A stretch of 64,000 nucleotides of DNA, taken from assembly GCF_003334405.1 (NCBI RefSeq), contig NZ_QOWM01000003.1. The stretch is one strand, 5' to 3'. Of this stretch, positions 58,863 through 64,000 are shown piece by piece (the first letter of the stretch is position 1; each line of letters begins with the position of its first letter). The translations under genes were made by a program, and so were the position numbers. The notes beneath the pieces were generated by a model, which had not been told where the DNA came from, ran no database searches, and saw nothing but the letters and a program-made list of their open reading frames with translations. Source of the stretch: Escherichia coli. GTDB lineage: Bacteria; Pseudomonadota; Gammaproteobacteria; Enterobacterales; Enterobacteriaceae.

Positions 58863-60233
58863 TGCCCTGGATCGTGGCTGAGTGATACGTAAACCACTGA
58901 CACAGGCAGCAATCACTGCCAGAATAGCCGCAGCCATCAGCGAGACGTGTGTACCATTATCTCCAAACTGATTTAGCATCAGCGCCACCAGCGCCGCGCC
59001 GCTACTCTGACCCAGTAGACGAGCCGTTCCTAACATGCCACTGGCTCCACCGCTACGTTCGCGAGGCGCGGAGGTAATAATGGTGTGGTTATTGGGTGAC
59101 TGGAATAAGCCAAATCCAGCACCACATAAGATCATCGGCCAGATAATATTGATATCCGCAGGTGACGCGGGCAGCAGAACCAGGGAAAAAAGCCCCGCAG
59201 CCATGATGAACAACCCTAAAGCCCCCAGCAATCCTGCATGTACGCGTTCAATCAAATAGCCTGCCAGCGGAGCCATCACCATCGTTGCTAACGGCCACGG
59301 TGTCAGAAGTAAACCTGTTTCGACTTCACTACGCCCGAGCACGGTTTGCAGGTAAAAGGGCAGGGAAACCATTGCCAGCATTTGTGCGCAGAAAGAGCAA
59401 ACAGATGTGCAAATAGAAAGTGAAAACAGCGGGATACGCAGTAAATCCACCGGTAGCAGCGGTACGGGAAGAGAAAGCTGGCGGCGAATAAAGAAAATAC
59501 CAACAACAACCATTACCACCAGTTCCGCAGCAATTAACGTCAGCGATTGCCCCTGAGCGAAACCACTCAACGCAGTGATAAGCAGGCCGAAGGTTAACGC
59601 GTTCATCACGGCGCTGGGCAGGTCGAAACGGGGTTTACTGGCGCGAGAACCATTGGGTGGCAGAAAACGCATCGCCAGAAGCAGGGCGATAATACCTAAC
59701 GGTACGTTGATTAAAAATAACCATTTCCAGGATGCGATGGAGAGGATTGCTGCAGCAATTGTCGGCCCGGCAGCAGAAGAGACGGCAACAATAAACGAGT
59801 TTATGCCCATCCCTCTACCCAGAAAACGTTGTGGATAGATCAGGCGGATAAGTGCGGTATTAACGCTCATCAACGCTGCACCGCCGAAACCTTGTATGAC
59901 ACGCGCAAGGGTGAGCATTTGCAGCGAATCAGAAAGGGCGCAGAACAGTGAAGACAACAGAAAAACGACCAGACCGCATTTATAAATACGTCGATAGCCA
60001 AACATATCGCCCAGAAACGAAAACGAGAGCAGGGAGATGACAATGGCGATTTGATAGGCGTTCACTACCCAGATGGAACTGGCTGGCGTGGCATGAAGGT
60101 CCGTGGCGATTGTTGGCAGGGCGACGTTGGCGATTGCGCCGTCAAGGACGGCCATCGAAATACCAATCACAATGGTTAATATCGCACCGTATCGCTGGGG
60201 CAATGGCAGGCCGTCGGCCTGAACTTTTGGCAT
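58860..60233 (-). CDS. yebQ: MFS transporter YebQ (457 aa)
   Basis: ORF 58860..60344; start placed at ATG 60233 (MPKVQADGLPLPQRYGAILTIVIGISMAVLDGAIANVALPTIA); 12-14 TM drug/H+ antiporter-like. Confidence 0.88.
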   Translation of the reverse strand: MPKVQADGLPLPQRYGAILTIVIGISMAVLDGAIANVALPTIATDLHATPASSIWVVNAYQIAIVISLLSFSFLGDMFGYRRIYKCGLVVFLLSSLFCALSDSLQMLTLARVIQGFGGAALMSVNTALIRLIYPQRFLGRGMGINSFIVAVSSAAGPTIAAAILSIASWKWLFLINVPLGIIALLLAMRFLPPNGSRASKPRFDLPSAVMNALTFGLLITALSGFAQGQSLTLIAAELVVMVVVGIFFIRRQLSLPVPLLPVDLLRIPLFSLSICTSVCSFCAQMLAMVSLPFYLQTVLGRSEVETGLLLTPWPLATMVMAPLAGYLIERVHAGLLGALGLFIMAAGLFSLVLLPASPADINIIWPMILCGAGFGLFQSPNNHTIITSAPRERSGGASGMLGTARLLGQSSGAALVALMLNQFGDNGTHVSLMAAAILAVIAACVSGLRITQPRSRA

Positions 60234-60409
60234 AGGAATTTTATATCTTTGGTGAATAATCAACAGGGGTATGATTCTAGCACTGATATTCACGGTGGAT
60301 GTCGCAGAATTGTAACTAACCGGCAAAAGATGGATTGCGACCACCCTGGTGCGAAATTATAATAAAAAACAGTTCTGATTTTTATAAAACACTCGCAATG
60401 AGGTGATAA

Positions 60410-61201
60410 ATGGCTAACGCAGATCTGGATAAACAGCCTGATTCTGTATCTTCCGTGCTAAAAGTTTTTGGCATTTTGCAGGCGCTGGGTGAAGAGCGCG
60501 AAATAGGGATAACCGAGCTGTCGCAGCGCGTCATGATGTCAAAAAGCACCGTTTATCGCTTTTTACAGACCATGAAAACCTTAGGTTATGTGGCGCAGGA
60601 AGGGGAGTCGGAGAAATATTCCCTGACCCTGAAATTGTTTGAACTGGGCGCTCGCGCGTTACAAAACGTCGATTTAATTCGTAGCGCAGATATCCAGATG
60701 CGTGAGCTCTCCCGCCTGACCAAAGAAACTATCCACCTCGGCGCACTGGACGAAGACAGTATTGTTTACATTCACAAAATTGACTCTATGTACAATTTGC
60801 GCATGTATTCACGGATTGGGCGTCGTAATCCGCTGTACAGCACCGCGATTGGTAAGGTACTGCTGGCATGGCGCGATCGCGATGAAGTGAAGCAAATTCT
60901 TGAGGGCGTGGAGTATAAACGCAGTACCGAGCGGACCATCACCAGTACAGAAGCGTTATTACCCGTTCTGGACCAGGTGCGCGAGCAGGGGTATGGCGAA
61001 GATAATGAAGAGCAGGAAGAAGGGCTGCGATGCATTGCGGTACCGGTATTTGATCGCTTTGGCGTGGTCATTGCCGGTTTGAGCATCTCCTTCCCGACGT
61101 TGCGTTTCTCTGAAGAGCGTTTACAGGAATATGTCGCAATGTTGCATACCGCAGCGCGCAAAATTTCTGCCCAAATGGGTTATCACGACTATCCGTTCTG
61201 A
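60410..61201 (+). CDS. kdgR: IclR-family transcriptional regulator KdgR (263 aa)
   Basis: 263-aa ORF MANADLDKQPDSVSSVLKVFGILQALGEEREIGITELSQRVMMSKSTVYRFLQTM. Confidence 0.93.
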   Translation: MANADLDKQPDSVSSVLKVFGILQALGEEREIGITELSQRVMMSKSTVYRFLQTMKTLGYVAQEGESEKYSLTLKLFELGARALQNVDLIRSADIQMRELSRLTKETIHLGALDEDSIVYIHKIDSMYNLRMYSRIGRRNPLYSTAIGKVLLAWRDRDEVKQILEGVEYKRSTERTITSTEALLPVLDQVREQGYGEDNEEQEEGLRCIAVPVFDRFGVVIAGLSISFPTLRFSEERLQEYVAMLHTAARKISAQMGYHDYPF

Positions 61202-61209
61202 TGAGAGTA

Positions 61210-61247
61210 AGAACCTGTCGGAATATCAAACAGACAGGTTCTTTATT
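61210..61247. terminator. Terminator between convergent kdgR and yobH
   Basis: gaacctgtcggaatatcaaacagacaggttc followed by tttattt. Confidence 0.6.
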
Positions 61248-61344
61248 TAGCATGAGAAAAATAAAGTTGAAGGTGGCGTTATATTAAACGCGCTTGCTAT
61301 AAGAGTATTTTACTCAGGAGTGAGAATCTGGTTATTTATTGCCC

Positions 61345-61584
61345 TTAACCATTATCGACCACGATATTGCTTTTGCGTAACAGCGGGCAATCTGTTATCC
61401 CCAAAAAACCACTTTTAGTGTGCAAGTATTGTACCGTGCTGGTGCCTCTGGCAGTCAGATAGGTACATTGCAAACCTAATCCTGCGGCATTCTCTTTGCT
61501 TCCAATCAAAACGCCATATCCGCTGAGTAATAATCCTATCCATACCAGTGCTATCAGCATAACTGTGCGAATGATGAATCGCAT
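61345..61584 (-). CDS. yobH: Small membrane/exported protein YobH (79 aa)
   Basis: 79-aa ORF MRFIIRTVMLIALVWIGLLLSGYGVLIGS. Confidence 0.8.
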   Translation of the reverse strand: MRFIIRTVMLIALVWIGLLLSGYGVLIGSKENAAGLGLQCTYLTARGTSTVQYLHTKSGFLGITDCPLLRKSNIVVDNG

Positions 61585-61742
61585 TACAACCTCTTCTCTT
61601 TTTATGTTCGCTTAATCGTAGCGGCAATATGCGCTGAAGCAAGCGACTCATTCCGAAAAAGCACGAATATCGACATAGTTAGGCGCTGTTTAACTAACGC
61701 ATGCTAGTTTAATGACATAAGGTAGGTGAAACGGAGATTGGA

Positions 61743-61886
61743 GTGAAAAAGTTTCGATGGGTCGTTCTGGTTGTCGTGGTGTTGGCTTGCTTGCTGCTTT
61801 GGGCGCAGGTATTCAACATGATGTGCGATCAGGATGTACAATTTTTCAGCGGAATTTGTGCCATTAACCAGTTTATCCCGTGGTGA
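61743..61886 (+). CDS. mgrB: PhoQ feedback inhibitor MgrB (47 aa small membrane protein), GTG start; not in the ORF track
   Basis: Manual translation from GTG 61743: (M)[46 protein letters not shown] then TGA; matches MgrB as recalled; a TGTTTA hexamer lies about 55 nt upstream. Confidence 0.88.
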
Positions 61887-61960
61887 TATCATTTTTTCAG
61901 CACTAGATTTTCTTCCTCTCCAGCAGTGGTAGAATAGCGCCTCTACTCAGAGGTGGTGAA

Positions 61961-62248
61961 ATGAACGAAGTTGTAAATTCAGGCGTGATGAACATTGCGT
62001 CTTTGGTTGTATCGGTGGTGGTTCTTCTTATCGGGCTCATCTTGTGGTTTTTTATCAATCGTGCCAGTTCACGGACTAACGAACAGATTGAACTGCTTGA
62101 GGCGTTGCTGGATCAGCAAAAACGTCAAAATGCACTGTTACGTCGTTTGTGCGAAGCAAACGAACCAGAGAAAGCAGATAAAAAGACCGTTGAGAGTCAA
62201 AAATCGGTTGAAGACGAAGATATTATTCGTCTGGTCGCCGAACGATAA
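61961..62248 (+). CDS. yebO: Small membrane protein YebO (95 aa)
   Basis: 95-aa ORF MNEVVNSGVMNIASLVVSVVVLLIGLILWFFINRASS. Confidence 0.85.
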   Translation: MNEVVNSGVMNIASLVVSVVVLLIGLILWFFINRASSRTNEQIELLEALLDQQKRQNALLRRLCEANEPEKADKKTVESQKSVEDEDIIRLVAER

Positions 62249-62917
62249 TCCTTCCTCAATCTTGAGTAACCCCGTCGTTGAAGGGTTACTCAATTCATCC
62301 TGATTATACGCACTGTCATGGTGCAACTGCTTCAAATTAAAACTCTGGTCTGACTTCAAATAATTATCATATTATTTATTTGCGTAACGGGATATCAGAA
62401 AAAGATATTTACCCCATTAATTTATTAGGATGTTTACATCGGATTTGTGATTAAGCGTGGTATTATTTATTAGCGAAACGTTTCTCTCTTGATTTTTTTG
62501 CTCATTCATCAATTTTTCTTATTTTAAATTTACAATCCCTTTGGGGATTGACTTCTCTTTAGGGTAATTAATAGCCGTTAACTGACTGTTTTATGAGAAA
62601 AAGTGATATAACTTTTTATTCATTGCATAGCAAAAAATGTGATATTGCACGCACTATGTAATAACTTCTCCCACTGGCCTGGAACAACTGAACTTATTGA
62701 ACTATGTTAGAAAATACGCCAGTTTAAGTATCTGCCTGAACTGGCAAGGTTAAGCACAATGATATATCGGCGCGTATTCCGTTGCATAAGTGTGCAAAAA
62801 AAGTGGAAGACGTATCGAGATTTGTGCGTCTGATCGAGACATGTTTAAAAATGGCTTGCCATAATTAACGTTGTATGTGATAACAGATTTCGGGTTAAAC
62901 GAGGTACAGTTCTGTTT

Positions 62918-63061
62918 ATGTGTGGCATTTTCAGTAAAGAAGTCCTGAGTAAACACGTTGACGTTGAATACCGCTTCTCTGCCGAGCCTTATATTGGTGC
63001 CTCATGCAGTAATGTGTCAGTTTTATCTATGTTATGCCTGCGGGCGAAGAAAACAATCTAA
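62918..63061 (+). CDS. yobF: Small protein YobF (47 aa), co-transcribed with cspC; not in the ORF track
   Basis: Manual translation from ATG 62918: [47 protein letters not shown] then TAA, 12 nt upstream of cspC. Confidence 0.85.
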
Positions 63062-63073
63062 GGAATTTTTCAA

Positions 63074-63283
63074 ATGGCAAAGATTAAAGGTCAGGTTAAG
63101 TGGTTCAACGAGTCTAAAGGTTTTGGCTTCATTACTCCGGCTGATGGCAGCAAAGATGTGTTCGTACACTTCTCCGCTATCCAGGGTAATGGCTTCAAAA
63201 CTCTGGCTGAAGGTCAGAACGTTGAGTTCGAAATTCAGGACGGCCAGAAAGGTCCGGCAGCTGTTAACGTAACAGCTATCTGA
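63074..63283 (+). CDS. cspC: Cold-shock-domain protein CspC (69 aa)
   Basis: 69-aa [72 protein letters not shown]. Confidence 0.97.
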
Positions 63284-63328
63284 TCGAATCCACTGATCTG
63301 AAGTGTGAATACGCTTCAATCTCGCTAT

Positions 63329-63355
63329 AAAGCCTCGTCGAATGCGAGGCTTTTT
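63329..63355 (+). terminator. Intrinsic terminator after cspC
   Basis: aaagcctcg-tcgaatg-cgaggc followed by ttttt. Confidence 0.75.
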
Positions 63356-63448
63356 ACTATGCTTTATCTTCGCTCCTGGCGTTCGGATATTTGCCCGCCG
63401 CGTGATTCGCGTTACACTTGCGGCCTTTAGTATCCTGCCGGAGTTGTC

Positions 63449-64000
63449 ATGTCTTTTTCCTGTCCACTTTGCCATCAGCCTCTTTCGCGTGAAAAAAACA
63501 GCTATATCTGTCCCCAGCGACATCAGTTTGATATGGCGAAAGAAGGGTATGTCAATCTGCTGCCCGTTCAGCATAAACGGTCTCGTGATCCGGGCGACAG
63601 CGCGGAAATGATGCAAGCACGCCGCGCATTCTTAGATGCCGGACATTATCAGCCGCTGCGTGATGCAATTGTCGCCCAACTGAGGGAACGGCTTGATGAT
63701 AAGGCCACGGCGGTGCTGGATATTGGCTGTGGTGAAGGGTATTACACACACGCATTTGCCGATGCGTTGCCCGAAATCACCACGTTTGGTCTGGATGTTT
63801 CGAAGGTAGCGATAAAAGCGGCGGCGAAACGCTATCCGCAGGTCACTTTTTGTGTCGCTTCCAGCCACCGTTTGCCGTTTTCCGATACCAGTATGGACGC
63901 CATAATACGTATTTACGCGCCGTGTAAAGCAGAAGAATTAGCACGAGTAGTGAAGCCCGGCGGCTGGGTCATTACTGCCACGCCGGGACCGCGACATTTG
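63449..64000 (+). CDS. rlmA: 23S rRNA m1G745 methyltransferase RlmA (RrmA), N-terminal 184 aa; 3' end outside the window
   Basis: Open frame from ATG 63449 to the window end: [50 protein letters not shown] (Cys4 zinc finger) then SAM-binding motif [10 protein letters not shown]; absent from the ORF track because no stop occurs inside the window. Confidence 0.85.

Follow-up and report, generated by a model that had tools for sequence, protein, structure and literature searches.

Anatomy of the Escherichia coli mgrB promoter: a predicted canonical PhoP box upstream of a small gene below the ORF length cutoff

The reading frame at 61743..61886 (+) of the window, by which is meant the whole stretch of 64,000 nt of Escherichia coli DNA analysed here, is E. 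coli K-12 mgrB itself, the gene of a 47-residue membrane peptide. Conservation and orthology place the predicted PhoP operator of this gene at 61676-61692, where it would form an ordinary 11-bp direct repeat with a degenerate promoter-distal half-site. The account as a whole, in which phosphorylated PhoP would activate mgrB through this box and MgrB would in turn exert feedback on PhoQ, is given a probability of roughly 0.92. The gene, its product and the architecture of its promoter are already known, and nothing in them is new; the useful point is the anatomy of the promoter, and the sole correction to an earlier note on this DNA regards the partner of the half-site TGTTTA. The coordinates of the features are collected in Table 1.

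Table 1 Features of the mgrB locus (positions in the window)
Feature	Position	Strand	Details and basis
Distal conserved block (candidate)	61643..61661	-	Counterpart of the distal PhoP box, reverse-oriented, footprinted in Salmonella yobG; E. coli minus strand CTTTTTCGGAATGAGTCGC
Proximal PhoP box, direct (predicted)	61676..61692	+	TAGTTA (61676-61681), GGCGC, TGTTTA (61687-61692); orthology to the Salmonella footprint and conservation
Extended -10, TGcTAGTTT (predicted)	61702..61710	+	TG 61702-61703, hexamer TAGTTT 61705-61710; holds most of GTTTA 61707-61711
Putative +1 (C61716 or A61717)	61716..61717	+	Transfer from the S1-mapped Salmonella yobG start via the alignment
Putative Shine-Dalgarno, GGAG	61733..61736	+	6 nt before GTG; 96-100% conserved in 112 species
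mgrB coding sequence	61743..61886	+	GTG start, 47 codons plus TGA; ORF listing, profile matches, MG1655 annotation

Orthologous loci and alignment

Orthologous loci were collected by means of a degenerate DNA pattern for CDQDVQFF, one genome being retained per species, which yielded at least 120 loci. The pattern fixes codons 28-35, and the orthologue set comprises Enterobacteriaceae-like mgrB only; invariance within these codons (C28-F35) is uninformative, being due to ascertainment, since they are fixed by the search pattern itself. The genera among the loci listed belong mostly to Enterobacteriaceae, from Escherichia, Salmonella and Citrobacter out to Buttiauxella, Cedecea, Mangrovibacter and Siccibacter. 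For the upstream footprint, the 160 nt preceding the start codon were taken, amounting to 112 distinct sequences, and aligned with MAFFT.

The proximal PhoP box

The promoter of Salmonella yobG (= mgrB) has been S1-mapped and DNase I-footprinted, and its direct PhoP box, ACAGTTACTCCTGGTTTAA, is separated by 12 nt from the -10 TAATTT on its downstream side (Zwir et al. 2012, PMC3335776). When the 112 species are aligned with MAFFT, the Salmonella box falls gap-free, column for column, on E. coli ATAGTTAGGCGCTGTTTAA at 61675-61693, a segment laid out as A-TAGTTA-GGCGC-TGTTTA-A, i.e. the box plus one base on each side. The half-sites TAGTTA and TGTTTA are 11 bp apart, which is the canonical register of the direct repeat.

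The two half-sites are set off from their surroundings by conservation. Among the 112 sequences, the GTTTA core of half-site 2 (61688-61692) is 100% conserved, NGTTTA being read in 112/112 and (T/G)GTTTA in 106/112 species, and the first base of the hexamer, 61687, is G in 72% and T in 22% of the cases. For AGTTA of half-site 1 (61677-61681) the conservation per position is 81, 100, 97, 85 and 100%. Mean information amounts to 1.53 and 1.82 bits in the two half-sites, as against 0.52 in the spacer 61682-61686, and the alignment places a 6-nt spacer between the half-sites in 12/112 sequences. The distance from the end of the box to the -10 (61693-61704) is 12 nt in 112/112.

Compared with the consensus (T/G)GTTTA-N5-(T/G)GTTTA, the segment TAGTTA-GGCGC-TGTTTA has 2 mismatches, both located in half-site 1. 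A search for KGTTTA-N5-KGTTTA with at most 2 mismatches showed no enrichment in the 64-kb window (20 matches vs 13.5 +/- 3.6 expected), TAGTTAGGCGCTGTTTA at 61676-61692 being one of the 20; as the consensus is found no more often than chance would have it, it is position, orthology and conservation that speak for the operator. The position proposed for the E. coli box is a transfer from the Salmonella footprint, combined with the conservation described above.

Published data bear on the same promoter. In EMSA, the E. coli mgrB promoter, used as positive control, is bound by PhoP (PMC8355897), and ChIP detects PhoP at the Salmonella yobG promoter in vivo (PMC2681069); moreover, PmgrB has been used as a PhoP reporter (PMC2789325). 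An IS5 insertion at -46 (61697) was said to separate the PhoP site from the start codon, and for that reason it fits a box ending at -51, not a box reaching -40 or -32.

The extended -10, the transcription start and the leader

Downstream of the box, a conserved TG followed by TAnnnT is best read as an extended -10, TGnTAnnnT. In the 112 sequences, TG is conserved at 97-98%, T61705 at 92%, and both A61706 and T61710 at 100%; the bases in between (61707-61709) agree with E. coli in no more than 13-30% of the sequences. The Salmonella -10 TAATTT aligns to the E. coli hexamer TAGTTT (61705-61710). At the -35 position (61682-61687) the sequence is GGCGCT, bearing no resemblance to TTGACA, and a scan with a generic sigma-70 consensus found no promoter at mgrB; together, the null scan and the missing -35 fit an activator-dependent promoter and do not constitute evidence against a promoter. 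The geometry is the one known from PhoP-dependent promoters, namely a direct box about 12 nt upstream of a -10, without a usable -35.

In Salmonella yobG, 5 nt separate the -10 from the +1, and the leader is 26 nt long (Zwir et al. 2012, PMC3335776). By analogy, transcription of E. coli mgrB would start at 61716/61717, with a leader of 26-27 nt; A61717 is conserved at 87% in the 112 sequences. Judging from its position, GGAG probably serves as the Shine-Dalgarno sequence. The RNA fold of the mgrB leader is no better than that of shuffled sequences (z = -1.15).

The GTG start itself (61743-61745) is kept almost throughout the 112 species (G 100%, T 96%, G 100%). In some Citrobacter a 6-nt duplication (GGAGTG) gives rise to tandem candidate starts.

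Apart from E. coli K-12 mgrB itself, the closest known systems include Salmonella enterica yobG/mgrB, which belongs to architecture II (Zwir et al. 2012): in both species 12 nt lie between box and -10, the -10 has the form TAnTTT, the proximal direct box aligns base for base, and a distal reverse-oriented block is found about 30 bp further upstream. The differences are small, half-site 1 being TAGTTA in E. coli and CAGTTA in Salmonella, half-site 2 TGTTTA and GGTTTA, respectively, and the distal block TTTTTC in the former and TTTTTA in the latter; the mgrB leader would be one base longer in E. coli. As predicted for mgrB, a direct box stands in for the -35 in the architecture I promoters of mgtA and phoP, at 12 nt from the -10 (PMC3335776). 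These, however, have two near-perfect (T/G)GTTTA half-sites in a single box, whereas mgrB has a degenerate upstream half-site (an S2-type submotif) and what appears to be a second, distal box.

The distal conserved block and the yobH side

In Salmonella yobG, a second footprinted box in reverse orientation, the 19-mer GTTTTTAGGAATGATTCAC, is centred at about -62 (Zwir et al. 2012, PMC3335776). This 19-mer is present exactly in two of the loci (L040 and L092) and aligns to 61643-61661, a candidate PhoP site in E. coli, with a role that can be proposed by analogy with Salmonella. In the 112 sequences, positions 61650-61658 are mostly 94-100% conserved, the exceptions being 61654 (72%) and 61655; the latter is G in E. 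coli and T in 65% of the species. Due to this G, the TTTTTA half-site of the block appears weakened in E. coli, and distal PhoP binding may be weaker there than in Salmonella.

Alternatively, the distal block might be a bidirectional PhoP site shared by mgrB and the divergent yobH, and controlling the latter as well across Enterobacteriaceae, or else a site for a different regulator. The thought of a different regulator arises because the best-conserved bases of the block, ATTCC (61650-61654), fall within what would nominally be the spacer of a PhoP box. As to yobH, PhoP control was rejected as the main explanation, for Salmonella yobH was reported to be apparently not PhoP-regulated (Banda et al. 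2019). Taken together, the two options are deemed improbable, and the block is preferably regarded as the counterpart of the second Salmonella box.

On the minus strand, TTGctt (61642-61637) is followed, after a 16-nt gap, by TAcgaT (61620-61615), and in the 112 species TTG is conserved at 96-99%, TA at 82-91% and the final T at 91%; the segment 61615-61642 (-) looks like a yobH promoter. The distal block is located directly upstream of this promoter-like pair, in direct orientation for yobH.

Other pairings of the half-sites

A partner at canonical spacing might also be sought on the downstream side of TGTTTA, in which case the box would be TGTTTA-ACTAA-CGCATG (61687-61703). The 11-bp spacing of such a box is correct, and T61702 and G61703 are 97-98% conserved; yet these are the last two bases of CGCATG and stand one base before TAnnnT, which is the position of the TG in an extended -10, whereas conservation at 61698-61701 is no higher than 39-78% and CGCATG has almost nothing in common with (T/G)GTTTA. 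Furthermore, a box at 61687-61703 would leave just 1 nt before the -10, as opposed to 12 nt in promoters of architecture I and II and 11 nt in yrbL (PMC3335776), and it would itself be interrupted by the IS5 insertion at -46 (61697), which was said to separate the PhoP site from the start codon. This arrangement is considered highly unlikely.

Somewhat further down the scale of credibility comes the operator envisaged in the earlier note, which had PhoP bound to TGTTTA (61687-61692) and GTTTA (61707-61711), half-sites about 19 nt apart. Both pentamers do exist in E. coli, each matching the core of a half-site. The second one, however, reads GTTTA in just 2/112 species (E. coli and an Escherichia sp.), the commonest sequences at these positions being ACCTG, ATTTA and TCCTG, and identity to E. 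coli over the five positions is 13, 27, 30, 100 and 23% in the 112 sequences. The sole invariant base among them, T61710, is the last base of the TAnnnT -10 preceded by the conserved TG. The assignment of GTTTA as a half-site has to be given up: the pentamer overlaps the conserved -10 hexamer 61705-61710, within which it is best seen as a lineage-specific coincidence. In addition, a spacing of 19 nt matches neither 11 nor 22 bp, and TGTTTA 61687 and GTTTA 61707 do not make up two conserved half-sites in helical register.

Comparison with a mapped PhoP box, for which the Salmonella yobG footprint was used (PMC3335776), points the same way only in part: TGTTTA falls inside the aligned box, whereas the mapped box lies upstream of GTTTA 61707-61711. 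The other half of the pair proposed in the earlier note stands, as TGTTTA 61687-61692 was likened there to a PhoP half-site and NGTTTA is kept in every one of the 112 species. Its unease about a non-canonical 19-nt spacing was correct as a measurement, since 19 nt do separate TGTTTA from GTTTA; it arose because the wrong elements had been paired, and the true partner of TGTTTA would be TAGTTA, at the canonical 11 bp. The operator call had been marked as tentative, and rightly so. In general, pairing half-sites by eye can be misleading, and a phylogenetic footprint settles the pairing quickly.

Identity of the mgrB gene

When the minimum is set at 20 aa, the ORF listing returns 61743..61886 (+), with a product of 47 aa. 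Its resemblance to MgrB lies well beyond chance: on the NCBIfam equivalog NF007635 it scores 89.9 bits (cutoff 40), residues 1-47 covering profile positions 1-47 of 47, and it matches the Pfam family MgrB, PF13998, with E = 2.8e-18. The surrounding 1001 nt (61300-62300) are shared, with 100% identity, by E. coli K-12 MG1655 and seven other listed strains. In MG1655, the identical interval is annotated as mgrB (WP_000714550.1) and is flanked by kdgR, the divergent yobH and, downstream, yebO, a layout which is the same in the window. Set beside E. coli K-12 mgrB (yobG), the product is identical over 47 aa, the DNA is identical over 1 kb and the flanking genes are the same, with no difference to report.

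NF007635, PF13998 and the MG1655 annotation bear out the identification of the 47-aa peptide as MgrB in the earlier note, the positions of which are all exact (GTG at 61743 and 48 codons including the stop to 61886, TGTTTA at 61687-61692, GTTTA at 61707-61711). Its explanation of why the gene had been missed is likewise correct: mgrB is absent from the supplied ORF track for the sole reason of the 60-aa cutoff, and its 47-aa frame appears once that limit is lowered to 20 aa. In this respect, mgrB is a textbook case of how length cutoffs can lose a small protein that is functional. Because loss of mgrB drives colistin and trimethoprim resistance, ORF tracks should keep it.

The residues reported as functionally important in MgrB, namely K2, K3, W20, Q22, F24, C28, D31, F34, G37, C39 and W47 (bioRxiv 438515), are all read in the peptide, which displays the hallmarks of the family: a length of about 47 aa, an N-terminal Lys-Lys, one hydrophobic helix with W20, a periplasmic tail with C28, G37 and C39, and a C-terminal W47. 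No variation is seen at W20, Q22, G37, C39, P46 and W47 among 82 distinct orthologues. Codon-position entropy in the + frame, calculated on 110 distinct orthologous coding sequences with the pattern-fixed codons excluded, is 0.73, 0.31 and 1.20 bits at positions 1, 2 and 3, respectively. The context yobH(-)/mgrB(+)/yebO(+) is maintained among the loci listed, with YobH divergent upstream in 101/103 loci with enough flank and YebO downstream in 105/105. That the 62-aa antisense ORF 61704..61892 (-), present in the ORF listing and longer than 60 aa, should be the coding gene in place of mgrB is next to inconceivable, for it is open in only 46/110 orthologous sequences, sequence variability tracks the codon positions of the + frame, and it is the + frame that matches the curated MgrB models (NF007635, PF13998).

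The mgrB neighbourhood, promoter included, is carried by 5424/5426 complete E. coli genomes. Four E. coli genomes yield partial matches only to mgrB and its promoter. In one strain, 744 (NZ_CM132967.1), the last 49 nt of the mgrB region alone remain, lying within sequence annotated as kdgR; this suggests a deletion that took out yobH together with most of mgrB.

MgrB is named 'lipoprotein' by NCBIfam and in some RefSeq records; the codon of Cys16 is 61788-61790. Conservation of this residue is just 87%, with G, S, A or F in its place in some species, and a C16A mutant of MgrB was reported to be functional (bioRxiv 438515).

Proposed mechanism

PhoQ is activated by low Mg2+ or antimicrobial peptides, and phosphorylated PhoP activates mgrB (PMC2789325; bioRxiv 438515). 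The MgrB peptide resides in the inner membrane, where it binds to PhoQ and brings down the kinase output of the latter, thereby forming a negative-feedback loop (PMC2789325; bioRxiv 438515). Its feedback inhibition of PhoQ has been described in E. coli (PMC2789325), and for the very protein encoded here both the inhibition of PhoQ and a decrease in PhoP-dependent transcription have been published (PMC2789325; bioRxiv 438515). It is this literature, and not the present sequence analysis, that documents the binding of PhoP, the inhibition of PhoQ and the importance of the key residues. The identity of the gene, the geometry of box and -10, the family-wide conservation and the orthology to the footprinted Salmonella site belong to the observations made on the locus and its relatives.

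Applied to the locus, phosphorylated PhoP would bind the direct repeat TAGTTA-N5-TGTTTA (61676-61692), which would stand in for a -35 element and ends 12 nt ahead of the hexamer of the extended -10, TGcTAGTTT (61702-61710). From the -35 position, PhoP would recruit RNA polymerase, presumably in a class-II-like fashion, and transcription would start at about 61716/61717. The transcript would have a short leader with the GGAG Shine-Dalgarno sequence, followed by the conserved GTG start, and the resulting product of 47 aa would insert into the inner membrane. There, contact of MgrB with PhoQ would involve W20 in the transmembrane helix of MgrB and C28, C39, G37, D31, F34 and W47 in its periplasmic tail; the kinase output of PhoQ would be lowered, and PhoP activity would become self-limiting.

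Like MgrB, SafA and MzrA are small bitopic inner-membrane proteins which modulate a sensor kinase (bioRxiv 438515). They are, however, unrelated to MgrB in sequence, and SafA activates PhoQ while MzrA acts on EnvZ (bioRxiv 438515). Moreover, the transmembrane segments of SafA and MzrA are anchors only, whereas that of MgrB is needed for inhibition (bioRxiv 438515).

Downstream of mgrB

The spacer between mgrB and yebO (61887-61960) is about 74 nt long in 111 of the loci listed. It holds a conserved extended -10-like sequence, TGgTAgaaT, at 61927-61935, and on this ground yebO probably has a promoter of its own. No intrinsic terminator was found after mgrB, and the RNA fold of the mgrB-yebO spacer does not exceed that of shuffled sequences (z = -0.05). 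A hairpin at 61938-61956 pairs the Shine-Dalgarno sequence of yebO, with a fold no better than shuffles.

An Rfam scan of 59000-64000 returned no match at mgrB. Further downstream, the cspA thermoregulator (RF01766) is matched over the full model with 135.5 bits at 62898-63358 (+), a segment spanning the small ORF yobF (62918-63061) and a gene of the cold-shock family (63074-63283). A RefSeq record of an MG1655 derivative names the latter gene cspE; in K-12, the gene at this place is cspC.
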